Source of the DNA: a virus
IMG/VR virus record: IMGVR_UViG_3300012013_000098
Location: 1-31,982 of that record
Strand: one strand, 5' to 3'
DNA length: 31,982 nt
In this document: piece after piece, positions 1 to 31,982 of the stretch
Numbering within the stretch: position 1 is the stretch's first letter
How the letters are laid out: each line of letters begins with the position of its first letter
Translations under genes and position numbers: made by a program
Notes under the pieces: model-generated
Seen by the model: the letters and a program-made list of their open reading frames with translations, nothing else
Databases searched by the model: none
What the model was told of the DNA's origin: nothing

Positions 1-55
1 CGATAATGTCCTGGAAGGTATATTTACCTTTTTCCGGGTGGATAGAAGTATACCA
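1..55. repeat. 55-bp terminal direct repeat identical to 31928-31982 (circular-contig assembly overlap)
   Basis: Base-by-base identity between window start and end. The length equals a commonly used de Bruijn k-mer (55). Confidence 0.9.
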
Positions 56-214
56 TGAATCACACCAGCCGCCTTCTCCGAACCAGCATCTGTGGGTGCA
101 GCCGGTTGTTCTTACGGCTATAGTTGGGCGCCCTTGTCTCGAACCCTCCGATTGTATACACGGATACAATTCAATTAAGGGAAGTCGTTTAGTGTAATCT
201 TTAAGCCTGTTCAC
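1..214 (-). CDS. queE: 7-carboxy-7-deazaguanine synthase QueE, N-terminal part (continues across the circular junction into 31371-31982)
   Basis: Manual minus-strand translation from GTG at 214 gives (M)[71 protein letters not shown]. This joins in frame to MYDAHPH of ORF 31371-31925. It has a QueE-like IQSEG motif and a radical-SAM Cys cluster. Confidence 0.8.
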   Translation of the reverse strand, partial: MNRLKDYTKRLPLIELYPCIQSEGSRQGRPTIAVRTTGCTHRCWFGEGGWCDSWYTSIHPEKGKYTFQDII

Positions 215-611
215 GGGGTCTATAAATTACTTTAGACGACTTTGTTTCTGCTAGGGAAATTTGTGTTAGAGGTAAGTCGGTCTCGTTAACAATTCTAGTT
301 GCTAACCACACACATAGATTTTCCGCCGAAGTTATAAAGGGTAATTTTTTATATTCCTCCCCCATCATGTCCAGAACTGGGACGAGTGGGTCTTCTTCCC
401 AGAGTAAGAAGTAGTGACAATAACCTTTTAAGATGGGTTCTACTAGGGCGTCTATGTCTGAAAAGAGACATGTAATTGAATTGGTCTTTGATTGGAAATT
501 GAAATCGCATTCTATTTCGTAAGTGTGTCCGTGAATTCTCCCGCATTTTTCCCCACCTTCCGGATTACGGTGGGCTGCATAAAAGTGGTATTTTTTGTTA
601 ATTATAAACAT
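201..611 (-). CDS. queD: 6-carboxy-5,6,7,8-tetrahydropterin synthase (QueD, PTPS T-fold)
   Basis: 136 aa. FYAAHRNPEGGEKCGRIHGHTYEIE matches the QueD AAH...KCGR-x-HGH-x-Y signature. The 3' end overlaps the queE start by 14 nt. Confidence 0.85.
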   Translation of the reverse strand: MFIINKKYHFYAAHRNPEGGEKCGRIHGHTYEIECDFNFQSKTNSITCLFSDIDALVEPILKGYCHYFLLWEEDPLVPVLDMMGEEYKKLPFITSAENLCVWLATRIVNETDLPLTQISLAETKSSKVIYRPREQA

Positions 612-614
612 AAC

Positions 615-1769
615 TTAGTTGGTTAATAATTTAGTAATGTATTCTTGCTCGTGCCAGACATTTAGTTCCGGCCCGGTATAGTCGGTGCAGACAATAAAGG
701 CTTCTAACCTTCTGCCTAGGTCGGCCCGTTGGGCTAACCCTTTATCTAGAATTTTATAATTGTCGGTTGCCTGGTTTAAAACGAAACCGGCCGAAGCAGC
801 ATCGAATGCATAATACTTAAATGTAATATCGTGCATCTCGGTAAAGCATCTAAAGTCTGGGTAAACTAAACAACAACCTAAAGCGTTTGCCTCTAGTGCT
901 GTCCAACTAACATAGTCCTGAAGGGAACAGTTAAATTGTATCTTAGAAGACTTTAACTCGTAGTAGTAATCTTCTTTAGTTAAGTTGGTTAGAATAGTAA
1001 ACCGGGGTTCTTGTTCTGCTAGTGCATAGAAGTCTTCCATAACCCCTTTTAAGTTGCTTCTAATGCTAGTTCCGGAAGTTGTAATCGTAAAGGTCCAGTC
1101 TTTATTTTCATCTAAGAAGTTTTTAATAACCTTCATTAAGAAGTAGGGGTTCTTTTCTTTATCGAACCGGCTAGTAAAGATAACGTTATTTTTTCTAGCC
1201 ACTTTATCCGGCGCGGTATCTAGAACATCTTGTAAGTGCAGAGGTAAAGACACAACGTGAATTGGTGCTTCGAACCCGGCCTGTCTTAACTGCTCTTTAT
1301 GAATAGTACTCCCAACAAATATTCCAGACATTCTTTTATCAATACCTAGCTCAAAAGATCTCATCCAGGACTTCATTGCAGAAGTAAAGTCGTATTCATC
1401 TACAGATTGGGCGTGCAACATAGAAAAGACTTTTACCCTTTTCAAATTGTATAAGTCTAAAGCATAGAAGACTGATTCAATACCCGGCGTCCAGAAGTCC
1501 TGTAAGAAGATAACATCTCCATCTTTTACTGCGCCGGTGTTTATTGCGTCCAGAAGTAAAGCACACTGGTCCATAGCCCATTTACCCCTACCAACAGCAT
1601 CTAGAACTACACCAACGTTAATGTTATCCCCACTCTGAATTGGCTTTAAATTAACAAAGTTGTATTCGTGGCTATATTCTGCAAATGCTTCCGGCATCCA
1701 GATGTTGGACAGCTGGTAAGTGTATCTTTCTTTTAACGGCTCTAGGCCGAAGTACCAAATTGTTTTCAT
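615..1769 (-). CDS. GT-B fold glycosyltransferase-like protein (GT4-like C-terminal half)
   Basis: 384 aa. VIFTSRFDKEKNPYFLMKV and DYVSWTALEANALGCCLVYP (a D-x7-E variant of the EX7E motif) resemble retaining GT-B enzymes. ATGA overlap with the methyltransferase stop and a 3-nt gap to queD. Confidence 0.5.
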   Translation of the reverse strand: MKTIWYFGLEPLKERYTYQLSNIWMPEAFAEYSHEYNFVNLKPIQSGDNINVGVVLDAVGRGKWAMDQCALLLDAINTGAVKDGDVIFLQDFWTPGIESVFYALDLYNLKRVKVFSMLHAQSVDEYDFTSAMKSWMRSFELGIDKRMSGIFVGSTIHKEQLRQAGFEAPIHVVSLPLHLQDVLDTAPDKVARKNNVIFTSRFDKEKNPYFLMKVIKNFLDENKDWTFTITTSGTSIRSNLKGVMEDFYALAEQEPRFTILTNLTKEDYYYELKSSKIQFNCSLQDYVSWTALEANALGCCLVYPDFRCFTEMHDITFKYYAFDAASAGFVLNQATDNYKILDKGLAQRADLGRRLEAFIVCTDYTGPELNVWHEQEYITKLLTN

Positions 1770-2356
1770 TTTATTATTGCCCAGGAACTATCTACAAAAG
1801 TTAAGTGGGGTAAACCAACAACCTCATTTACCGCCCGGCTAACCTCTAACCTTAATTTATGATTCTTATCGAAGTCGATAATTTCTTCTCTCTGCTTATC
1901 TGTATACTCGATTAGGTAATCGTGGCCGGATATAACCCCGCCTTGTTTTACCTTAGGGGTAAACAATTCCAGGTCTAATTTTACCTGCTCGTAAGTGTGA
2001 AGTCCATCAACATAAAGACAGTCAAAGTAATCATCTTTAAATAAGTCCACTATGTCCTGGCTATAGTACTTACACTTTACTAAATTTCTAACGGCTAGGG
2101 TTTCGTTATTGAATGCTTCTTCTACTAGAGATAAGTCGGTTTCGTTTATTAAGTCGTTATCATCTATCAATTCGTCCCACGGGTCAATTGCAACAATCAT
2201 AACATCTTCACCTAGAACTTCTTTCATCATTCTAATACTTTCTCCGGCGTAAGAACCTATTTCTAAAATCTTCTTTACGTTGTTCTGCTTTAAGAAGTCG
2301 CAGTAGTCTAAAAATCCTTCCCATAAGAAAGAACCTTCTGGTCTCATTTCAATCAT
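1766..2356 (-). CDS. Class I SAM-dependent methyltransferase (Methyltransf_24 / TylF-CmcI-like O-methyltransferase family)
   Basis: 196 aa. Motif I is ILEIGSYAGES, and YVDGLHTYEQVKLDLELFTPKVKQGGVISGHDY is typical of this family. ATGA overlaps on both sides. Confidence 0.7.
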   Translation of the reverse strand: MIEMRPEGSFLWEGFLDYCDFLKQNNVKKILEIGSYAGESIRMMKEVLGEDVMIVAIDPWDELIDDNDLINETDLSLVEEAFNNETLAVRNLVKCKYYSQDIVDLFKDDYFDCLYVDGLHTYEQVKLDLELFTPKVKQGGVISGHDYLIEYTDKQREEIIDFDKNHKLRLEVSRAVNEVVGLPHLTFVDSSWAIIK

Positions 2357-2766
2357 AAGATATCGTCTTTATAGTCGTTAGGTTGAACTGCTAGCCCATT
2401 GTATTTAGTAAAGCAAATTACGTGATAAGGTTCTGTCTTATCTATAAAAACACTATCAGTCGGTTTTAGATTAAAGATGTTATCATCGACAACTCTATAA
2501 ATTAGATGGGTTCTAACTTTAATGTTGGGGGTAAGTAAATGATAATTTTTATTATTACATTCAACAGAAATCATATAGTTGGAATTAATACACAGATCTT
2601 CTATTTGTTCAACCCCGCCTTTTGTTTCTAAAAACTCTTTTGTAAAGTAAAGATGCTTTACCTTTACCGGGTCTATCTCACCAATTTCATATCTAATGAA
2701 CTTAGTTTCAATTCCGTAAAGTCTACCCTCTACTTCTTTTCCGTACCAGTTATTTTTCTTTTGCAT
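2353..2766 (-). CDS. Hypothetical protein (137 aa) inside the modification operon
   Basis: I prefer the ATG at 2766 (MQKKNNWYGKEVEG...), because the track start at 2817 would overlap the upstream gene by 49 nt. ATGA overlap with the methyltransferase start. No family recognised by eye. Confidence 0.5.
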   Translation of the reverse strand: MQKKNNWYGKEVEGRLYGIETKFIRYEIGEIDPVKVKHLYFTKEFLETKGGVEQIEDLCINSNYMISVECNNKNYHLLTPNIKVRTHLIYRVVDDNIFNLKPTDSVFIDKTEPYHVICFTKYNGLAVQPNDYKDDIL

Positions 2767-2768
2767 TA

Positions 2769-3101
2769 TTATTTTATTAGGTAAGCACCGTTCTCGTTGT
2801 CCTCTAGAACTTCGCACGCTGCTAAATTAAATTTATCAATTAACATCTCGGCTATCATTTCACAGGACTTAGGACCGAAATCAATTCCTCTTGGTGTTGA
2901 CCAATTTAATAACCAGGCTTGCATTTCCCTTTTTAGAACAATAAATTCGATATCTCTATCTGCGTGGGAAACTTCTTTCCAGGCTTTAATCCAGAAGACG
3001 TGTCTGTGTGGGTAATTTAAAAAGTCTACTTCTGGAATATCGCATCCGGGCCAGTGGTGTAAGCCTTCTACTTGAAGGGTAATAACTATTTGTTGTCTCA
3101 T
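2769..3101 (-). CDS. Second PTPS/QueD-like T-fold protein (paralog, function unknown)
   Basis: 110 aa from ATG 3101 (MRQQIVITLQVEGLHHWPG...YPHRHVFWIKAW). The H...HRH pattern parallels AAH...HGH of QueD. ATGA overlap with the dpdA stop (3098-3101). Confidence 0.45.
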   Translation of the reverse strand: MRQQIVITLQVEGLHHWPGCDIPEVDFLNYPHRHVFWIKAWKEVSHADRDIEFIVLKREMQAWLLNWSTPRGIDFGPKSCEMIAEMLIDKFNLAACEVLEDNENGAYLIK

Positions 3102-3997
3102 CTTAACGGGTTTGTTTTCCAATCTAATTTTCCAGCCTCGTACTGTTCCTGAATTCCTGCAACTAATCTAAGTTGACTCTCTGCACCTATAGCCATAAAT
3201 ACCCTTAACCCGTTATTGTAAGAATACTTCTGGTATTCTAAAAAGGCTAGGGTAGACATATAGGCATTTAACCCCTTCATCCCCGACCTATAATTTCTAA
3301 AGTCCAGGGCTTCTTTGGGCGAGGCCTTCACCTTTTCGAAGGCCTCTATTAACCCCGGAGGTAATTTAAGCTTCTTACCGGACACTAGGGCTTTATTGTC
3401 TATTGTCTTTAGACCAACGCCGGGTTCGAACCAGGGAATAAGTCCATACACAACTGAATGTCCCCAGGAAGCAGAGTCGACTGAATGAAGGGGAAGTTGA
3501 TACATTTCCGGCCACTTAACGAAACCTAGCCCGTGGGTTTTGCAGGGGTTATTTTTATAAACCCGTTGGTATCTCTGTTGCATCCATTCTGCTTTAGAAA
3601 TTGTTCCGCCTGCAACACACACGTGTTCATTTTTATTTGTAGCATCTTTTAGATAAGCCCAGTCGTTATCTAATCTAGTAAAGACAAACATAGGATTAAA
3701 TCCCCGGGCGAGCATTGTTTCATAATTGTATTTAGTTTCCTTATCGTTGTTAATAACATCCAGCATAACATACTTTTCTGTATAAGGAGCCCATTGCTCT
3801 AAATAAGTACAATACCCATTTAAATCTAATCCTTTCCCCCCGGTCTTAGCGTTGAAAATTGTATAGGCCCCTGAGTCGATCATAGTGTTAGCTTGACCCG
3901 ACATCGATATAGACTTAAACAATTTAGAAAACTCTTCGTCTCTACTTAGATAAGCATACGAACAGAGCACATTGAAATAAGTGTTATTGGAAATCAC
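3098..3997 (-). CDS. dpdA: DpdA-like DNA guanine transglycosylase (TGT superfamily)
   Basis: 299 aa with a GTG start. Blocks MIDSGAYTIF (catalytic-Asp DSGA motif), YVMLDV, VCVAGG, THGLGF and SVDSASW are as in phage DpdA. Embedded among queD, queE and folE. Confidence 0.7.
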   Translation of the reverse strand: MISNNTYFNVLCSYAYLSRDEEFSKLFKSISMSGQANTMIDSGAYTIFNAKTGGKGLDLNGYCTYLEQWAPYTEKYVMLDVINNDKETKYNYETMLARGFNPMFVFTRLDNDWAYLKDATNKNEHVCVAGGTISKAEWMQQRYQRVYKNNPCKTHGLGFVKWPEMYQLPLHSVDSASWGHSVVYGLIPWFEPGVGLKTIDNKALVSGKKLKLPPGLIEAFEKVKASPKEALDFRNYRSGMKGLNAYMSTLAFLEYQKYSYNNGLRVFMAIGAESQLRLVAGIQEQYEAGKLDWKTNPLR

Positions 3998-4523
3998 AGT
4001 CTGGATATTTTTCAGTTAAGAATTCCATAATCACCCCTTTTATTTCGTCCATCTGATCTTTATAAGTTTCCGACACTACAATCTTTATAGTTAGATGCTT
4101 GTCGCCGCCTGGAAGGGGCATATCTAAATCCTCCATAATCTCTTCTAAGTTGTCCCAGTCGTGTTTAATTACTTTTAGACCCCAGTCTTCTAACAAATCG
4201 ATATTCCAATCTTCTTGCAGGACTTTCCAGTCCCATTCTCCGAATGAAGAGTTGTCTTTAATAACGAACTCTTTCTTTTGATCTTCTGTTAACCCAGTTG
4301 CTCTTTGAATTGAAATTGTTTTAAGTCCTGCTTCTTTCGCAGCCTTTAATCTCATGTTCCCACCCAGGACTACTAAATCTTCGTCCACCACTAAAGGTCT
4401 TAAATTTAACATCTCTGGAAAGTCCTTTATCGACTTAACCAGTTTTTTAAATTGTTCAGGATTAATGAACCTCGGGTTTTCTGGGTTCTCCTTAACTTTT
4501 TCAATATTGATTATTTCTATCAC
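3984..4523 (-). CDS. ParB N-terminal (ParB/Srx-like) domain protein
   Basis: 179 aa with a GTG start that sits 3 nt after a TATAG box. ENPRFINPEQFKKLVKSIKDF...LRPLVV...VVLGGNMRLKAAKEAG matches the ParB-like nuclease/NTPase domain. 14-nt overlap with dpdA. Confidence 0.7.
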   Translation of the reverse strand: MIEIINIEKVKENPENPRFINPEQFKKLVKSIKDFPEMLNLRPLVVDEDLVVLGGNMRLKAAKEAGLKTISIQRATGLTEDQKKEFVIKDNSSFGEWDWKVLQEDWNIDLLEDWGLKVIKHDWDNLEEIMEDLDMPLPGGDKHLTIKIVVSETYKDQMDEIKGVIMEFLTEKYPDCDFQ

Positions 4524-4526
4524 CTT

Positions 4527-4540
4527 CTATATATCAATTT
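4527..4540 (-). promoter_or_regulatory. Start-proximal box TTGATATATAG-N3-GTG (class B motif)
   Basis: Minus strand reads AAATTGATATATAGAAG then GTG. The TATAG-N3-start geometry is the same as at 6699, 7451, 9573 and 9513. Confidence 0.45.
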
Positions 4541-4562
4541 CTGTTTTCATCTAAAATTTAGA

Positions 4563-4582
4563 CTTTTTAGTCCTTTTTAGTC
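4563..4582. repeat. Tandem 10-bp direct repeat CTTTTTAGTC x2
   Basis: Read directly: 4563-4572 and 4573-4582 are identical. Confidence 0.85.
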
Positions 4583-4606
4583 TTACCCTCTTGATATTAT
4601 CAGATT

Positions 4607-4635
4607 TAATTAAATAACTAATCGTTATTTAATTA
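4607..4635. repeat. Perfect 12-bp inverted repeat TAATTAAATAAC-N5-GTTATTTAATTA
   Basis: Read directly. Arms at 4607-4618 and 4624-4635. Confidence 0.85.
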
Positions 4636-4649
4636 TAACCCAACTTATT

Positions 4650-4672
4650 AATAAACGGATAAACCGTTTATT
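4650..4672. repeat. Perfect 9-bp inverted repeat AATAAACGG-N5-CCGTTTATT
   Basis: Read directly. A third copy, AACCGTTTATT, lies at 4818-4828. Confidence 0.85.
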
Positions 4673-4888
4673 TTCCGTTCCGATAATTATTTTAATTATC
4701 TTTACCTTATTTTATAATCAAAGGCGGGGCCTCACGAATTTAATTTTACTCTACAAGTTTAATAGTGCCAATCTGAACTGCAAGATAACGTCCCGCCGGG
4801 CAAAATTCGTAAAAAGTAACCGTTTATTATCGATTCAGATGGGGCTTTAGATACTCAACCGGTACTATCCTGTCGTAATTCTCCTACC

Positions 4889-4903
4889 GTTTCCGGGTTT
4901 CCG
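4889..4903. repeat. Short iteron-like repeat GTTTCCG x2 (8-bp period)
   Basis: Copies at 4889-4895 and 4897-4903. A related GTTTCCCG lies at 4932-4939. Confidence 0.6.
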
Positions 4904-4963
4904 TCTTGATTTACTTCTACAGTTTAAGAAGGTTTCCCGATTCGAGGGTCGATTAATTTAAAT

Positions 4964-4995
4964 ATTATATAGCCATCAGGAAGAAGTATTTCCCT
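4964..4995 (-). promoter_or_regulatory. Class A promoter candidate AGGGAAATACTT-N14-TATAAT
   Basis: Minus strand reads AGGGAAATACTTCTTCCTGATGGCTATATAATATT. It shares the 12-mer AGGGAAATACTT and identical spacing to TATAAT with 28805-28836. It fires into the 430-nt untranslated region upstream of the ParB-like gene. Confidence 0.5.
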
Positions 4996-5011
4996 ATGTC
5001 CAGAACTTTTT

Positions 5012-5215
5012 TTAAATTATTTCCTGGGCTAACTTCTTTACCCGATTAACCACTGCTCTCCGGCAAGAACCGCAGCCGGTATCCCTTCTATTTTCCCCGG
5101 TGGATAAGTTAAAGATTTTATAAATAACCGCCATCTCCTCGGGCTGCCAGACTTTTTTATTCAACACAAACCACTCTCTGTGTTCTGTTAATAAAATCTT
5201 TGCCTCTTCGTTCAT
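5012..5215 (-). CDS. Hypothetical protein (67 aa)
   Basis: ORF with an ATG start, tightly packed after the upstream gene. No family recognised. Confidence 0.5.
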   Translation of the reverse strand: MNEEAKILLTEHREWFVLNKKVWQPEEMAVIYKIFNLSTGENRRDTGCGSCRRAVVNRVKKLAQEII

Positions 5216-5226
5216 CTTAGTATTCG

Positions 5227-5628
5227 TTAATCCACTTGTCCGTCTGTATCGACATCAGCGATGCTGTCCCCGCCGTTAGCAGGCTCGGAAGTATTCCCGT
5301 CTTCCATAAAAGCAAGGTTATCAATAAGGTCGTCCAGAACGTCAGACACTGGGGACAATCCAAGGGTTTCGTCCTCGTTAACTTCGTCCTCGTTAAAAAC
5401 CATCGATACGGCTGGCTGCTCTGGATTACCGGAATTGTCGCCGCAAGAAGAACAGCCTGTAGTAGTGCTGTGATCAGTTGTAAAAAATTCATCTATAATT
5501 TGTATTTTCGTTTTAGGAGATATTTGTAATCTCTCTCTTTGTCTCATAACATCTTTTTCTAAAGATGCTTCGGGGGTAATAAAGAAAATTCCCGTTCCTT
5601 TAAACTGCCATTTAATCTGTTTTATCAT
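5227..5628 (-). CDS. Hypothetical protein with a strongly acidic C-terminal tail
   Basis: 133 aa. The tail NEDEVNEDETLGLSPVSDVLDDLIDNLAFMEDG...DSIADVDTDGQVD contains a 15-bp-period repeat (TCGTCCTCGTTAA at 5369-5381 and 5384-5396). The start overlaps the sigma-like gene's end by 17 nt. Confidence 0.55.
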   Translation of the reverse strand: MIKQIKWQFKGTGIFFITPEASLEKDVMRQRERLQISPKTKIQIIDEFFTTDHSTTTGCSSCGDNSGNPEQPAVSMVFNEDEVNEDETLGLSPVSDVLDDLIDNLAFMEDGNTSEPANGGDSIADVDTDGQVD

Positions 5629-6115
5629 TATCTGTATTTTTTTTATTTTCTAGAACCAGGGCCATAATATGTCGTCTGATCCTATTGATTGTGAGAGAGA
5701 CTGATGTCCTCGGTATTTGAGTTGCCCTAGCCAACGAAGAAACCGTGTGGTTCTCGTTAACGAAGGTGTCGAACAGCATTCGGTCATACCAGGAAAGTTT
5801 GGCGAGTTCTTCTCTAACTTTGTCTGCTTTTTCCATATAGCTAGGATCTTCATCATAAACTGTGTCTTCGAATTCGCCGGTAAATTCCACATCTTCTTTT
5901 CTATAAGTATGAAAGAACTCTGAGGTGGTAGATTTCCATTGGTTCATCATAATACGAACGATAAAAAAGCGGGCGCCCCCCGACAAGATTATTGCTTTGC
6001 AGTCTTTCCTGCGAAGAAATTCGTCTAGACAGTAGTGGAGTAGTTCGTCTGCTAAAGGGGAATTTTGGGATATTCTTAAAGCTGCTTCGTTTAAGTTTCC
6101 GTAATTCTCTTTCAT
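5612..6115 (-). CDS. Sigma-70/ECF-like RNA polymerase sigma factor candidate
   Basis: Region-2-like PLADELLHYCLDEFLRR...ARFFIVRIMMNQW and region-4-like LSWYDRMLFDTFVNENHTVSSLARATQIPRTSVSLTINRIRRHI. I prefer ATG 6115 (MKENYG) because the track start at 6187 is a GTG that overlaps the upstream gene by 46 nt. Confidence 0.55.
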   Translation of the reverse strand: MKENYGNLNEAALRISQNSPLADELLHYCLDEFLRRKDCKAIILSGGARFFIVRIMMNQWKSTTSEFFHTYRKEDVEFTGEFEDTVYDEDPSYMEKADKVREELAKLSWYDRMLFDTFVNENHTVSSLARATQIPRTSVSLTINRIRRHIMALVLENKKNTDNDKTD

Positions 6116-28873: not shown

Positions 28874-30124
28874 TTACGTCCAGGTCTCTTCCGGTGGGTT
28901 CATCCTCTTCCGGCCCGCAACGGCGTATCGTGGCCCACCTTTGAAGGAGTGGGTGGCATACCTCAGGGCGTCCATCAGGTGGTTGTAGGAGTCGATGGGC
29001 TTATCTGTCCCGGTCCGGTAGGCGTAGTTGTAATATTCCTCGATTAAATTCTCAGAAGACGGGTGGACAAATACCTCGTAGGTTCTTAGCCGGTCGATAC
29101 CCGCCCTAATTGAGTCCGGGCCCTTTACGGCCGGGTTGCAATTTCTCCAGCCCAGCCTTCTCAGCGTCTCGATGGACTTAGGTTCAGCGGAGTCGGCGTA
29201 AATCGAGGCCGTCCTTGGAATTTTTAAACTGTCCATCTTAGCAGAGATGTCCTCGTTGGTGAGGCCCTGGGAATACATTAACTCTTCCACCCAAATCCTC
29301 TTACCCCTTTTATAAACTTTTACCAGTGCGGTGGGGTCGGCTGCGAAGCCCCAGTCCAGCCCGTAAACAATTTCCGCCTCTGGGTCCGGGGTAAACTCGA
29401 ATCTCCAGTTCTTAAATACCTGTCCTTCCCCGATATCTTTCCACTGGCCTTCTATATGGTGGGCGTAGTAGTCTGGGTCGTACACACCAATGTCTTCCCA
29501 CTCCTTTATCTTCTTAGGGTCCAGGTTGTCCGCGTTGTCTTTATAAGTGGTGTGGAGGTATCCGTGGTTGTGGGTCCACCTAGGGCTGGGCTGCCCATCG
29601 GGTAAGTAGAACCTTTTGTAGATCCAGTGGGACTTAGACGTCGGGTTGAATAGCAGGAATATTTTCCTGTCCGCGCCCTTCTGTCTAAATGAGTCGATTA
29701 GTTTAACATACTCCTCCTCAGAAGGTAATTCTGTAGCCTCATCTATAAGAAGGTGAGTTACACGGGCGAGTCCCTTACCCTTGGCCGTCACAGTTCCTTC
29801 TTGCAGCCTCATAGCGTGGGTGGTAATCATATTCTTAGAACCCACCGCTCTTATCTCCTCGCCCTTTATTAACAGGTATTGGGCTACCCCCCAGTCGTTA
29901 ATTAAATCCACTATGTCCCTATAAATCGAGGACGATATAGACTTCTGGGTGTATCTGGTTATAACCCCGCGGAAGTACTCTGGGGATAAAAGCTTCATTA
30001 AGAAGTATGCAGCCGCCTGGGTGGACTTCCCGGATGCACGGCCGCCCGAGATAATCCAATACGTCTTGTCGTTGTCCTGGAAGACTGGGCCGAACCACTC
30101 TAAGAACTTAAAACTCTTGGTCAT
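28874..30124 (-). CDS. terL: Terminase large subunit (PBSX/Terminase_3-like)
   Basis: Walker A GGRASGKST and Walker B HLLIDEATEL, followed by a C-terminal nuclease region. I prefer ATG 30124 (MTKSFKFLEW), which gives a 17-nt overlap with terS instead of the longer track ORF. Confidence 0.9.
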   Translation of the reverse strand: MTKSFKFLEWFGPVFQDNDKTYWIISGGRASGKSTQAAAYFLMKLLSPEYFRGVITRYTQKSISSSIYRDIVDLINDWGVAQYLLIKGEEIRAVGSKNMITTHAMRLQEGTVTAKGKGLARVTHLLIDEATELPSEEEYVKLIDSFRQKGADRKIFLLFNPTSKSHWIYKRFYLPDGQPSPRWTHNHGYLHTTYKDNADNLDPKKIKEWEDIGVYDPDYYAHHIEGQWKDIGEGQVFKNWRFEFTPDPEAEIVYGLDWGFAADPTALVKVYKRGKRIWVEELMYSQGLTNEDISAKMDSLKIPRTASIYADSAEPKSIETLRRLGWRNCNPAVKGPDSIRAGIDRLRTYEVFVHPSSENLIEEYYNYAYRTGTDKPIDSYNHLMDALRYATHSFKGGPRYAVAGRKRMNPPEETWT

Positions 30125-30506
30125 CTGAGATATCAATGATTGGTCCTGGAAGCCCGGGGGAAATCCCACCCGGTAAGATAATCTGGACGGGCGAGAAGGT
30201 GTCAATCCCGATTAACGGGGACTCGATGTAGCCCCTTTCCTTCCCACGGGTCTTTAAGTAGAAGATTGTGGCCGCCGTGTTGCCCTCCCGGATCTGTTTG
30301 AACAGCTGGGACTCCACGAAGTCCAGGGTCACTGCCTGGATACCATCGACTGCCTCTTTAAAGGCCGGGTCGTCATTATAGTACTTATAGAACTGGCTCC
30401 GGGATATCCCAGCCTGCTTAACGGCCGAGGTGACTACGCCCAGACTTTGCTCCAGCGCCGCGAGCGCCCGCTCTTTACTCTGTTCTATTTTGTTCTCTAC
30501 TGACAT
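30108..30506 (-). CDS. terS: Terminase small subunit
   Basis: 132 aa. ALEQSLGVVTSAVKQAGISRSQFYKYYNDDPAFKEAV...TAATIFYLKTRGKERGY is a typical HTH small-terminase pattern. Confidence 0.8.
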   Translation of the reverse strand: MSVENKIEQSKERALAALEQSLGVVTSAVKQAGISRSQFYKYYNDDPAFKEAVDGIQAVTLDFVESQLFKQIREGNTAATIFYLKTRGKERGYIESPLIGIDTFSPVQIILPGGISPGLPGPIIDISDDQEF

Positions 30507-30544: not shown

Positions 30545-31366
30545 TTATTGTTTAATTAGATGTAAGAACTCCTGCCTCGCCTTCTGGTCCTCTTTGAATA
30601 CACCCAGCATCTTAGACGTTGTGGTGTGGGTATCGTGCTTCTTTACTCCCCTCATAGCCATGCATAGATGCTGGGCTGTTATAACAACGGCTACACCTTT
30701 AGCATTTAACTCTTTCATTAGCCTTTCTGCGACTTGGGTGGTTATTCTTTCTTGGTTCTGGAAAGCCCTAGCATATAAGTCCACACAACGGGCTAGTTTA
30801 GATAACCCGACTATCTTACCGTTGGGAATGTATGCAACGTGGGCGTGTCCGAAGAACGGTGCTAGGTGGTGTTCACATAGAGAGTAGAACGGAATGTTAG
30901 TTTGGATAATCATTTCATCTGTGCCCTCAGCGTCGAATGTCGTAAAATTAAACTCTTCTGGGTTAAGAAACTCTTTTAGAAACTTAATGTATCTTCTTGG
31001 TGTTTCTTTTAGCCCTTCTCTATTAGGGTTGTCGAAGTATTCTATTACTCTTAGCATATTCTCTTCTACTTCTTTGTGTCCTTCTTGCTCCCATGGAAAT
31101 TGTATCCACTGTTGAACGGGCTCTTCCCTTTTGTCTATTAGTCCTATAAACGGTTTATCTGGAAAGAGTGCATTATATTTAGATTGGGTTGCGCCGGAGT
31201 CTATTAAATCATCTATAATTATGTCCGCCTCTTCTGGGCTGTCCACTGGGTTAAGCATTGCTGCTATGTATTGTCCACCTCTAGGTACTCCATAGTAGGT
31301 CTTTGTTCTGTCTAGAGGGAGGATAAGTTGCTTTATCTCTTCCCAGGTTATTTTTCTTTCTTGCAT
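30545..31366 (-). CDS. folE: Fusion of a Gpt-like purine phosphoribosyltransferase domain (aa 1-95) with GTP cyclohydrolase I FolE (aa 96-273)
   Basis: The N-terminal part ITWEEIK...[13 protein letters not shown]...[12 protein letters not shown]...WIQFPWEQ parallels E. coli Gpt (VTWDM...AVSRGG...IVIDDLVDTGGT...WIEQPWDM). The C-terminal part [11 protein letters not shown]...[21 protein letters not shown]...GLSKLAR...QNQERIT...HLCMAMRGV is canonical FolE. Confidence 0.8.
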
Positions 31367-31370
31367 AGTG

Positions 31371-31982
31371 TTAAACTGCTCTTTTGGTATCGAATGCTAT
31401 GATGTGGTCGCGGCCGGTCCAGCAGTATCCCATCTCGAGGGCCTTTTCAATTGATTTAGCATACTCGTGAATTAGAGTTTGGCGCGTATCTCCCGCCGGC
31501 ATTAACCAGGTTTTTGTTTTAGGTATACCCATGTCTTCTCGGAAGGTCTCTATTTCACGTAGTGTGGTAGGAGCCCCATCCCAGACTGGTTTAAAATGAT
31601 AATCCTTATGGAATAATAAGGTTTGTTTTATAGCGTCTAAATTTAACCGGTCCCTATTATGGGTTTGTATAAACTTCTCGTCCACTACATTTCCTTTGGG
31701 CGTTAGGATACCTAATTTAGGTATAGAGTTGGAAAACTTAGGCGATAATGAAATTAAATCTATAGGGTAATCTGTTTCTAGGAAGTGTGAACCTTCTGTC
31801 TCCATAGTAATAAAGATGTTCCTTTCCTGTGCGAAGTGGGTTAACTCGTTAACTAGTTCTGGGTGCATAGTTGGGGAGCCGCCGGTTAGCATCATTTCTG
31901 TGATGTGCGGGTGGGCGTCATACATGTCGATAATGTCCTGGAAGGTATATTTACCTTTTTCCGGGTGGATAGAAGTATACCA
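31371..31982 (-). CDS. queE: QueE, C-terminal part (N-terminus at 1-214 across the junction)
   Basis: The frame stays open upstream of the listed ATG 31925 through the window end. The sequence [13 protein letters not shown]...ETEGS is QueE-like (LTGGEP analogue). Confidence 0.8.
31928..31982. repeat. 55-bp terminal direct repeat identical to 1-55
   Basis: Base-by-base identity with the window start. Confidence 0.9.

Follow-up and report, generated by a model that had tools for sequence, protein, structure and literature searches.

The phage 7-deazaguanine pathway, comprising FolE, QueD, QueE, QueC (and its variants) and DpdA, is regarded as well mapped. That an accessory domain fused to one of its enzymes can mark added chemistry has a precedent in Gat-QueC (PMC6884629, PMC10516641), a fusion that differs from the one described here in that the added domain is a glutamine amidotransferase, acts at another step of the pathway and has a known role. 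Phosphoribosyltransferases (PRTs) likewise occur within a FolE–QueD–QueE pathway on a deazapurine scaffold in bacterial secondary metabolism: ToyH (toyocamycin) and TubE (tubercidin), which we liken to the present domain by their descriptions, differ from it in being detected by Pfam PF00156 and in acting on preQ0 or CDG. Two further comparisons are regulatory. GFRP, a small protein that binds to the FolE decamer, is a model for regulation without homology to the PRT domain; PyrR and PurR reuse the PRT fold for ligand sensing, but keep the full-size fold and bind RNA or DNA.

The closest relatives in both sequence and structure are E. coli Gpt/XGPRT (PDB 1A95-98, 1NUL, 4JLS, 4JIT) and Yersinia XPRT (5XTK). 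Gpt-like proteins are also encoded, among others, by three cultured 7-deazaguanine phages, each time as a separate gene: Cellulophaga phage phiST (gp064, 142 aa), Brevundimonas phage MaInes (XPRT, 161 aa) and Flavobacterium phage immuto_2-6A (gp211, 131 aa), the latter two genes adjoining folE. These are annotated in GenBank. In the pathway papers (Hutinet 2019, Hutinet 2023 and the iggy paper) we found no discussion of them, nor is the fate of guanine excised by DpdA addressed there; literature searches, and term searches within these papers, turned up no reference to a PRT domain or gene as part of the 7-deazaguanine pathway.

A Gpt-like domain joined in frame to GTP cyclohydrolase I

The window – the whole 31,982-nucleotide stretch of DNA analyzed here – is a complete circular phage genome of 31.9 kb, the last 55 nt of which equal the first 55 nt. 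It co-encodes DpdA, FolE, QueD and QueE, together with a DpdL-like protein, all on the minus strand. The DpdA-like DNA guanine transglycosylase (3098..3997; phrog_887, E 5e-26; 27% identity to PaMx25 DpdA) is the presumed source of free guanine, and supplies the DpdA on which the initial annotation had built its functional proposal. The DpdL-like protein (2769..3122), predicted to belong to the CDG decarboxylase family, is 38% identical (E 9e-21) to phiST gp040, identified as DpdL following PMC10516641; with this homologue present, QueC is absent from the window genome. QueD (PTPS) lies at 201..611. The gene for QueE (radical-SAM CDG synthase) runs on over the circular junction: its C-terminal 203 aa are encoded at 31371..31982 (phrog_2076, E 8e-27) and its N-terminal part, past the 55-nt terminal overlap, at 56..214, giving an open frame of 241–256 aa according to whether the start, which is uncertain, is GTG at 214 or TTG at 169.

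Four nucleotides past the QueE stop codon is the ATG of the fusion ORF (30545..31366, minus strand), which the ORF list and re-translation show to encode 273 aa, with its stop codon at 30545..30547. Sequence, AlphaFold, Foldseek and a match to the phiST 'phosphoribosyl transferase' define residues 1–95 (31082..31366) as a minimal Gpt-like type I PRT domain. Residues 96–111 (31034..31081) form a 16-residue stretch of linker and FolE helix alpha1, modeled by AlphaFold as a helix, with pLDDT dipping to 74–79 at residues 81–100; a FolE-alpha1-like helix is also kept at the C-terminus of standalone PRT homologues. Residues 112–273 (30548..31033) are the GTP cyclohydrolase I (FolE) domain, as judged by profiles, conservation, re-translation and Foldseek. 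The in-frame fusion of a Gpt-like domain of some 95 residues to an intact FolE, as first proposed, is thus upheld by sequence profiles, structure and the single ORF. A frameshift or assembly artefact joining two genes, which the initial annotation had singled out as a danger, is ruled out: the ORF is continuous, and the fused form recurs as the same single ORF in all but one of the 80 best IMG/VR loci (79) and in the 120 best protein clusters. Megablast of the fusion gene against phages gave no match, relatives being found at the protein level only.

Residues 1–95 have a type I PRT fold, nearest to that of E. coli Gpt/XGPRT. Profile searches, proposed at the outset as a check for some other fold, assign the domain to PRTs: NCBIfam xanthine PRT PRK09177 (E 1.8e-5), PHROG 8995 'phosphoribosyl transferase' (E 3.7e-7) and, by phmmer against the PDB, XPRT 5xtk (E 5e-4). 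Searched against the PDB, a profile built from 41 homologues finds Gpt/XPRT, a single archaeal purine PRT and no other protein (E 2e-5), aligning over the whole domain with two gaps; the similarity exceeds chance. The AlphaFold model of the domain (pLDDT 92.6) has an alpha/beta core with a parallel sheet that superposes on solved PRTs, and the sole significant PDB matches by Foldseek are to E. coli XGPRT (4jls and 4jit; prob 1.00, TM 0.68), followed by weak matches to OPRT and APRT. A Pfam search of residues 1–99 gave no match at E≤1, PF00156 included, a family that is matched weakly in some relatives of the domain only. The PRK09177 match covers only profile positions 78–145 and scores 24.3 bits against a curated cutoff of 138: with this score and 95 aa in place of ~152, the domain is derived from Gpt, with which it shares 29% identity, without being a Gpt orthologue.

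Blocks colinear with Gpt run through the domain in the order ITW, xRGG, hhhDDhhDoGxT, K115 and W134-x-x-x-P-W-[DE], in agreement with the colinear flanking blocks and PRPP loop reported initially. The corresponding stretches of the ORF are ITWEE (residues 6–10), GVPRGG (26–31), a 12-residue PRPP-binding motif (49–60) and WIQFPWEQ (87–94); re-translation at the exact window coordinates confirmed three of the four (26 residues). GVPRGG (31274..31291) aligns to Gpt V35–G39, including R37-G38-G39, which we take to be the PPi-binding loop I; PRGG, which does not vary within the family, stands opposite Gpt S-R37-G38-G39, with R29 conserved in 98% and G30/G31 in 99% of 181 distinct fusions. The PRPP motif (31187..31222), aligned to Gpt D88, D89, D92 and T93–T96, follows the 13-residue pattern of a hydrophobic run, two acidic residues, a hydrophobic pair and D-[ST]-G-x-T; among the same fusions D52, D53 and T60 are conserved in 100% and D56 in 99%. 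K79 (31130..31132; 97%) falls in an invariant column opposite Gpt K115, presumably the 6-oxo contact. WIQFPWEQ (31085..31108), with W87 and E93 conserved in 100%, aligns to Gpt W134-IEQPW139-D, in our understanding the region of the purine 2-substituent, with W134 as the purine-stacking Trp. K79, W87, I88 and P91-W92-E93 thereby lie opposite K115, W134, I135 and PW[DE], which we assume to be 6-oxopurine-binding positions of Gpt. The alignment columns that stay the same from E. coli Gpt through the phage family are R37, G38, G39, D88, D89, D92, G94, T96, K115, W134 and W139, on our reading the contacts to PPi, PRPP and the 6-oxopurine. Across the 181 fusions the ligand-motif residues are 96–100% conserved, whereas mean pairwise identity of the PRT domain is only 61%, which argues for selection on the binding of both PRPP/PPi and the purine.

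Two segments are missing. In the alignment to E. coli Gpt, residues ~51–79 have no counterpart and 11 residues at ~118–129 make up a second deletion; in the AlphaFold model helix 30–36 runs directly into strand 49–55. Gpt 51–79 we take to be beta3, flexible loop II and beta4, a beta-hairpin bearing the catalytic loop. The central shortening noted at first is therefore present, but what has gone is the flexible-loop hairpin and not the hood. In other type I PRTs loop II covers the transition state, and mutating it lowers kcat by orders of magnitude; we know of no characterized PRT without it, and none was found among the solved structures matched in the PDB searches. Given the deletion of this segment, catalytic competence is uncertain and activity cannot be assumed.

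The remainder of the ORF is, as supposed, a canonical FolE. It matches Pfam PF01227 (E 5e-64; 215.5 bits, cutoff 27) and TIGR00063 (197.4 bits, cutoff 181.6), and Foldseek places it, as a T-fold, on T. thermophilus FolE 1wm9 (TM 0.88, 45% identity). Re-translation shows C164, H166, H167, H233 and C235 all to be present (CEHH at 30866..30877, H233 at 30668..30670, C235 at 30662..30664); we equate these with E. coli C110, H112, H113, H179 and C181, the Zn ligands and catalytic His. C164, H166, H167 and C235 are conserved in 100% of the 181 fusions, a count that H233 lies outside.

Distribution of fused and standalone forms

A search for further PRT–FolE fusions, as had been suggested, found many: the genomes of 32 cultured phages, most of them Queuovirinae of the PaMx25/NP1- and VpKK5-like groups, and at least 294 IMG/VR loci. 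All carry the annotation GTP cyclohydrolase only, so that an unrecognized domain is present in 32 phage records of GenBank and in metagenomic 'GTP cyclohydrolase I' proteins by the hundred. The belief that this architecture had not been described is borne out insofar as it is unannotated and no literature mention was found; it is nevertheless common. Of 406 FolE-bearing phage records, 34 align over 80% or more of the query; the PRT domain as such is matched in 32. The profile of the PRT domain alone retrieves ~900 protein clusters (50% identity) at E≤1e-10. In PaMx25, the PRT domain is mis-split over two gene calls.

The neighborhood of these genes is consistent. QueD and/or QueE are always present in those of the best 80 IMG/VR loci that have an upstream flank, as is DpdA where the flank allows. 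The PRT is a separate gene immediately upstream of folE in loci L003, L007 and L127 and in Flavobacterium phage immuto_2-6A, and immediately downstream of it in locus L006 and in Brevundimonas phage MaInes. MaInes had been considered as a case of FolE and PRT without a deazaguanine pathway; this was refuted, QueC, QueD and QueE being annotated elsewhere in its genome. In many unrelated phages, gene neighborhood thus associates the PRT module with folE and with 7-deazaguanine clusters. Conversely, Gpt-like PRT genes among cultured phages are almost confined to 7-deazaguanine phages, with 32 fused and 11 standalone genes in such phages against two uncertain records. End-product genes differ from cluster to cluster: Gat-QueC in PaMx25, QueC in VpKK5, DpdL without QueC in the window, and QueF plus DpdN in immuto.

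Outside phages, a PRT–FolE-like fusion, a CENH variant, occurs in ~15 Dehalococcoidia chromosomes. The single neighborhood examined is of housekeeping type, and no DpdA or Que genes were found in the ~6-kb flanks of any of these fusions: DpdA alone therefore does not explain the link between PRT and FolE.

One further fusion, P0182, joins the PRT to the C-terminal half of DpdA and is present on two independent contigs. It was rejected as a direct Rosetta-stone link to DpdA: because the Queuovirinae gene order is queD-folE-dpdA, P0182 seems to have arisen when an internal deletion took out FolE together with the catalytic N-terminal half of DpdA.

Proposed guanine salvage and competing explanations

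Residues 1–95 are best explained as descending, in much reduced form, from a 6-oxopurine phosphoribosyltransferase of the Gpt type. For its function, a salvage loop of the kind the initial annotation put forward seems to us the best single hypothesis: the module, a guanine PRT cut down to a minimum, would clear and recycle the guanine released by DpdA, a proposition whose chances we consider evenly balanced. DpdA would exchange a guanine in DNA for a 7-deazaguanine base, freeing one guanine per exchange; the PRT module would join the freed guanine to PRPP to give GMP; host guanylate kinase and nucleoside-diphosphate kinase would convert GMP to GTP; and the fused FolE, followed by QueD and QueE (plus DpdL here), would turn GTP into the next deazaguanine base. 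Poorly soluble guanine, able to compete for re-insertion by the transglycosylase, would be cleared, and the precursor of the pathway would be regenerated. We infer, in this, that guanine is the substrate, that catalysis persists despite the lost flexible loop II, and that the phage gains physiologically.

The quantities concerned may be large. With 40.7% GC and 31.9 kb, the window genome holds an estimated ~13,000 G; full replacement and a burst of ~100 would release roughly one million guanines per cell, that is, millimolar amounts. Guanine is soluble only at tens of micromolar. Release is maximal in phiST and immuto_2-6A, since every G is replaced in both (PMC10516641). A conserved, widespread and unannotated Gpt-derived module on or beside FolE is a candidate for a missing accessory step, one that would drive base exchange by removing a product and would regenerate GTP.

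Several observations favor salvage. By sequence profile and structure alike, Gpt/XPRT are the only significant PDB relatives. Positions for PPi, PRPP and the purine are held under selection, and cultured phages with such genes are nearly all 7-deazaguanine phages. The PRT is fused to folE or adjoins it on either side, a Rosetta-stone pattern, and what stays the same while end products vary is its partner, the first enzyme of the pathway, which consumes GTP; this fits a common substrate, guanine or GTP. Moreover, the standalone PRTs of phiST and MaInes keep the Gpt 51–79 segment, unlike that of immuto, so that the ancestral phage protein looks like an ordinary enzyme. On the other side stand the deletion of the loop II segment and a score far below family thresholds (24 bits against 138 for PRK09177, and no PF00156 match). 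Two kinase reactions separate GMP from the substrate of FolE, so the fusion would give no direct channeling; most hosts probably own a Gpt or Hpt; and in Dehalococcoidia PRT is linked to FolE where guanine derived from DpdA is not evident. The salvage idea is directly testable in tractable P. aeruginosa phages such as NP1 and PaMx25.

If a PRT of ~95 residues with all ligand motifs and no flexible loop is active, it would be the smallest such enzyme; otherwise it would be a new sensor built on the PRT fold. According to the latter view, which we find possible if unlikely, the domain would bind guanine nucleotide, guanine, PRPP or (p)ppGpp without turnover and tune the FolE decamer, in cis when fused and in trans when standalone, docking through the FolE-alpha1-like C-terminal helix; its function would then resemble that of GFRP in mammals, or that of PyrR and PurR, regulators with a PRT fold. 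Such a role would sit well with the deletion of loop II, with the retention of the alpha1-like helix in standalone members, and with a partner that is always FolE, even in Dehalococcoidia without visible DpdA. Mammalian FolE is indeed controlled by a small docking protein, and GCH–GFRP complexes are among the Foldseek matches. However, the residues for PRPP, PPi and purine have all been retained, those of the acidic pair and of the RGG loop among them, which exceeds the need of a sensor of a single ligand, and the relatives that retain the loop II segment look like plain enzymes, one beside folE (MaInes) and one elsewhere in a 7-deazaguanine genome (phiST). Phage pathways, besides, rarely carry allosteric regulators, and the AlphaFold monomer (pTM 0.65, pLDDT 91), which carries no information on domain arrangement, shows no fixed contact between the PRT and FolE domains. 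A ligand for such a sensor is suggested by Gpt and Hpt themselves, which bind (p)ppGpp (bioRxiv 10.1101/2025.04.13.648610).

Alternatively, the module could phosphoribosylate CDG, DG or preQ0 in the manner of ToyH/TubE to give 7-deaza-GMP analogues, serving a nucleotide-level (pre-replicative) route into DNA or a feedback signal. We think this distinctly unlikely, and a shade more doubtful again that it is the loop-less PRT that makes these analogues, whether for a pre-replicative route or as a built-in inhibitor of the fused FolE. PRTs for preQ0/CDG are known from secondary-metabolite clusters (bioRxiv 10.64898/2026.04.15.718813), the P0169 representative is a PRT fused to a DpdL-like domain, and the standalone genes of phiST, MaInes and immuto sit among RNR, kinase and thymidylate genes; the replacement of 100% of G in phiST and immuto (PMC10516641) could also be read in this way. 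Yet in every case with flanks of sufficient length the module is accompanied by DpdA, an enzyme that works on free bases and would be drained of its substrate, and the purine-contact residues stay constant across clusters that make different bases. Since GTP cyclohydrolase I binds 7-deaza-GTP as an analogue of its substrate (PDB 6z86, 7alb), the product is expected to inhibit the fused FolE. All known cases have, in addition, been argued to be post-replicative (PMC10516641); deazapurine phosphoribosylation, if true, would contradict the view of phage 7-deazaguanine modification as purely post-replicative DpdA events.

That the domain is a decaying Gpt remnant, kept as an oligomerization or solubility tag for FolE, is very improbable: two deletions relative to Gpt and the many 7-deazaguanine phages that thrive without it (E. 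coli Queuovirinae, for example; only 34 of 406 FolE-bearing records match the query at ≥80% coverage, and 32 the PRT domain) would fit such an appendage, but ligand-binding residues stay 96–100% conserved in the 181 diverged fusions, and are conserved between fused and standalone PRTs as well, the family numbers ~900 clusters at E≤1e-10, and the AlphaFold fold is compact and of high confidence.

The fusion protein and its two halves

The reading frame at 30545..31366 (minus strand) is, in the ORF listing, single and uninterrupted and encodes 273 amino acids. The initial annotation divided its product into an N-terminal phosphoribosyltransferase (PRT) domain of about 95 residues and a GTP cyclohydrolase I (FolE), and the N-terminal motifs it quoted are all found in the translation of this minus-strand ORF: ITWEE at residues 6-10, GVPRGG at 26-31, a 12-residue PRPP-type motif at 49-60 and WIQFPWEQ at 87-94, with three of these, including WIQFPWEQ, re-translated at exact window coordinates.

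The FolE half passes the curated FolE models: Pfam GTP_cyclohydroI covers residues 112-271 (E 5e-64) and the full protein scores 197 bits against NCBIfam TIGR00063 (cutoff 181.6). C164, H166, H167, H233 and C235 are all present, and we take them to be the counterparts of C110, H112, H113, H179 and C181 of E. coli FolE (zinc ligands and catalytic histidines); C164, E165, H166, H167 and C235 are invariant across 181 related fusion proteins. The AlphaFold model of the full-length fusion (pLDDT 91.2) can be superposed, in its C-terminal part, on solved FolE structures (1wm9 of T. thermophilus, TM 0.88, 45% identity, Foldseek). Given the family matches, the conserved residues and the superposition, this half is a canonical FolE, as had been proposed.

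Residues 1-95 are a PRT fold derived from Gpt, the E. coli xanthine-guanine PRT, with a resemblance above chance. Pfam gives no match in residues 1-99; matches are obtained with the NCBIfam xanthine PRT model (E 1.8e-5), with PHROG 8995 'phosphoribosyl transferase' (E 3.7e-7) and, using phmmer against the PDB, with xanthine PRTs (E 5e-4). Searched against the whole PDB, a profile of 41 homologues finds nothing but Gpt/XPRT chains and a single archaeal purine PRT (E 2e-5), in an alignment that covers the complete domain with two long gaps. Structure prediction, which the annotation had suggested as a check, gives a confident PRT-type model of residues 1-99 (pLDDT 92.6, pTM 0.84), with which Foldseek pairs only two PDB entries significantly, E. 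coli XGPRT 4jls and 4jit (prob 1.00, TM 0.68); a search of a viral structure library adds the Cellulophaga phage phiST protein labelled 'phosphoribosyl transferase'. By sequence profile and by structure, the significant relatives in the PDB are of the Gpt/XPRT family.

The N-domain family was aligned with the product of the gpt gene of E. coli MG1655. Gpt shares R37, G38, G39, D88, D89, D92, G94, T96, K115, W134 and W139 with the phage family as invariant columns: these presumably represent the loop that binds PPi, the acidic pair for Mg-PRPP, the Asp close to N7 of the purine and the 5'-phosphate loop, together with the Lys contacting O6 and the Trp stacking on the base. Two Gpt segments are missing, residues ~51-79 and ~118-129. 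The first, which we take to comprise strands beta3 and beta4 with flexible loop II between them, shows that the shortened segment is the hairpin of the catalytic flexible loop and not, as originally described, the hood. In other type I PRTs loop II closes over the transition state; none of the solved PRTs matched in the PDB searches is without it, and we know of no characterised PRT that is. All features of a PRT fold are found in the N-domain except the flexible loop and a score above the Pfam threshold, while the FolE half is a full member of its family. In its presumed working the N-domain resembles Gpt most, yet it is no Gpt orthologue (24 bits against a cutoff of 138), being a loop-less domain of 95 aa compared to 152 aa: an unusual minimal PRT.

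Distribution of the fusion and its stand-alone relatives

The fusion is a real, selected and widespread architecture. In a tblastn search of 50,697 phage records with the complete protein as query, 34 records match over at least 80% of its length (44-47% identity), among them Pseudomonas phages PaMx25, NP1 and JG012/054, Xanthomonas phage DoCa3, Sphingomonas phage MMDA13, and Variovorax, Stenotrophomonas and VpKK5-like Vibrio phages; the two records opened (PaMx25 and VpKK5) are classified as Queuovirinae. The N-domain alone recovers 32 of these 34. The 120 best 90%-identity metagenome clusters all cover the full fusion (66-92% identity, 263-290 aa), and IMG/VR holds at least 294 loci, with a single-ORF fusion in 79 of the best 80. 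Over 181 distinct fusions mean pairwise identity is 61% for the PRT domain and 74% for FolE, and PRT motif residues are 96-100% conserved. Recurrence of the same single-ORF architecture in clusters and IMG/VR loci rules out an assembly or frameshift artefact.

The impression that the architecture was undescribed holds for the N-domain, which is unlabelled (every annotation of the cultured-phage fusions reads 'GTP cyclohydrolase' only), but not for the fusion itself, which is common in phages and metagenomes. Stand-alone phage PRT genes, by comparison, are labelled in GenBank. The term 'phosphoribosyl' does not occur in Hutinet 2019, Hutinet 2023 or the iggy Queuovirinae paper, and no description of a PRT-FolE fusion was found in the literature searched, most subscription journals lying outside its scope. 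In PaMx25 (NC_041953.1, 6883..7813) the RefSeq folE start is an internal codon: the folE frame runs open from 6911, coding for the complete fusion, and the PRT domain is covered by gp38, a 'hypothetical protein' in another frame that overlaps folE. Three fusions (P0244, P0246 and P0306) carry inteins inside the FolE domain, the first two with HNH-endonuclease matches as well.

A profile search run exhaustively over 1.84 billion representatives gave 893 clusters at E<=1e-10, and 2,825 with the threshold relaxed to E<=1e-3; among the top 150 representatives FolE is present in 50 and absent from 100, some of the latter being fragments. Members without FolE are genuine separate genes, several of which adjoin folE. 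At loci L003-L005, L007/L008 and L127 the stand-alone PRT immediately precedes folE and overlaps it in a different frame; it lies directly downstream of folE at L006, after QueE at the contig end at L128, and among replication genes at L009 and L129, where no folE occurs within the sequence available. The picture is similar in cultured 7-deazaguanine phages. A 131-aa 'phosphoribosyl transferase' is encoded just ahead of FolE, between QueE and DpdA, in Flavobacterium phage immuto_2-6A; in Brevundimonas phage MaInes FolE is followed by a 161-aa 'xanthine phosphoribosyltransferase', with QueC, QueD and QueE encoded elsewhere; and in phiST a 142-aa PRT lies near the ribonucleotide reductase gene, away from QueD-QueE-FolE-MazG-DpdL-DpdA3. 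Aligned, these form a graded series: the loop-II segment is kept in MaInes and phiST and lost in immuto_2-6A, and the fused forms are without both segments.

Phage Gpt-like genes are tied strongly, though not absolutely, to 7-deazaguanine DNA modification. E. coli Gpt matches 16 phage records in tblastn, of which 11 are these 7-deazaguanine phages; the others are two near-identical host gpt fragments, one misfiled Salmonella genome and two unverified faecal contigs, in one of which (the one examined) there are no FolE or Que genes near the match.

Some stand-alone PRTs (L003 8001..8396, L006 8001..8489, L007 4741..5103) end in a FolE-alpha1-like helix (..[DE]N..R...Y..) although the neighbouring FolE has its own N-terminus, and at L003 and L006 that FolE is a longer form (215-228 aa). 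The tail suggests either that the gene split and FolE was later replaced, or that the helix serves in docking. At L128 a QueE-like gene of 460 aa (4512..5894), about twice the usual size, lies directly upstream of the PRT and may contain an intein or extra domain. In protein P0182, found on two contigs from different studies (L096 1655..2449, L097 1641..2435), the PRT domain is joined to a C-terminal DpdA half; the gene order is probable QueE (without a Pfam match)-QueD-[PRT::DpdA-C]-ParB, and the arrangement looks like a deletion that took out FolE and the catalytic half of DpdA. P0169 (241 aa) combines the PRT domain with a C-terminal domain similar to the window's DpdL-like 117-aa protein (E 8e-6, small database).

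The 7-deazaguanine cluster

Positions 1..55 of the window are identical to 31928..31982, which makes the window a complete phage genome, circular or terminally redundant, with a unique length of 31,927 bp and 40.7% GC; the window ends interrupt its QueE gene. On the minus strand, followed across the circular junction, the cluster comprises genes for a ParB-like protein (3984..4523), a DpdA-like protein (3098..3997), a DpdL homologue (2769..3122; 38% identical to gp040 of phiST), a conserved 154-aa protein of unassigned function (2353..2817), a SAM methyltransferase (1766..2356), a GT-B-like glycosyltransferase (615..1769), QueD (201..611), QueE (~214..56 plus 31982..31371, spanning the junction) and PRT-FolE (30545..31366), followed by TerS and TerL. 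There is no QueC in the cluster, and this gene set could mean 7-deazaguanine, or a so far undescribed derivative with additional methylation or glycosylation. L010, L127 and many IMG/VR loci carry the same set from DpdL homologue to glycosyltransferase.

Wherever an IMG/VR locus has upstream flank, the fusion is accompanied by QueD and/or QueE, and DpdA is there too if the flank is long enough. None of the 80 PRT-FolE loci (L013-L092) has both QueC and the DpdL-like 117-aa gene: this mutual exclusion suggests two alternative pathway branches. At 28874..30506 the TerL ORF call (TTG at 30205) overlaps a small-terminase-like ORF (30108..30506) by 98 nt; translation of TerL probably begins further downstream.

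Proposed guanine salvage and alternative roles

The PRT module is minimal, loop-less and Gpt-derived, and has been recruited, usually by fusion, to the enzyme that opens the phage pathway to 7-deazaguanine. Enzymes of DpdA's transglycosylase family exchange the base and release free guanine (PMC6884629, PMC10516641). One GTP is spent at FolE for each deazaguanine made. A Gpt-type module would convert the released guanine and PRPP to GMP, which host kinases would return to GTP, closing the loop; salvage would also clear a poorly soluble product. Free guanine can, moreover, be re-inserted by TGT-family enzymes. Such a role would be a logical extension of known biochemistry and makes PRT-FolE a concrete, testable candidate for the handling of excised guanine in these phages.

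Salvage would fit a module whose closest family is Gpt and whose residues aligned to the Gpt PRPP, PPi and 6-oxopurine contacts are all kept. It is also consistent with a FolE partner that stays the same whatever the final base (preQ0, G+, DG-type, preQ1 derivatives), with enrichment of the module in phages with DpdA, and with a PRT in both phiST and immuto_2-6A, the two phages known for replacement of 100% of G (PMC10516641). The initial interpretation is partly borne out: there is support for the identity of the domain, and a salvage loop is plausible. We give salvage about an even chance and no more, because deletion of the loop leaves catalysis uncertain, because GMP is two steps from GTP (hence the fusion gives no channelling), and because fusions on Dehalococcoidia chromosomes have no Que or DpdA matches within ~6 kb.

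The module might instead be a non-catalytic ligand sensor regulating FolE in cis or in trans. Loss of loop II, a partner that is constantly FolE, the alpha1-like helix kept by stand-alone PRTs and the known binding of (p)ppGpp by Gpt and Hpt (bioRxiv 10.1101/2025.04.13.648610) would suit a sensor; given that the complete catalytic-type motif set is kept and that relatives with the loop-II segment look like plain enzymes, we consider it rather unlikely. Still more doubtful is a PRT acting on the deazapurine itself in the manner of ToyH or TubE (bioRxiv 10.64898/2026.04.15.718813): despite that precedent, it is opposed by the universal co-occurrence with DpdA, which uses free bases, by purine contacts that are invariant across clusters making different bases, and by the binding of 7-deaza-GTP to GTP cyclohydrolase I as a substrate analogue (PDB 6z86, 7alb). 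That the domain is a vestigial remnant or structural tag is very improbable given the motif conservation over the 181 fusions.

The Dehalococcoidia fusions, PRT-FolE-like proteins on about 15 MAG chromosomes (L101, L105-L112, L114-L119), have intact PRT motifs; the one neighbourhood examined (L106) holds ordinary housekeeping genes. Their FolE motif CEHH is changed to CENH in most (CERH in L101, CEMH in L118), and Y, N, S or Q takes the place of the His that precedes the second zinc Cys by two residues (the H233 position): the FolE-like part may be a repurposed T-fold enzyme.
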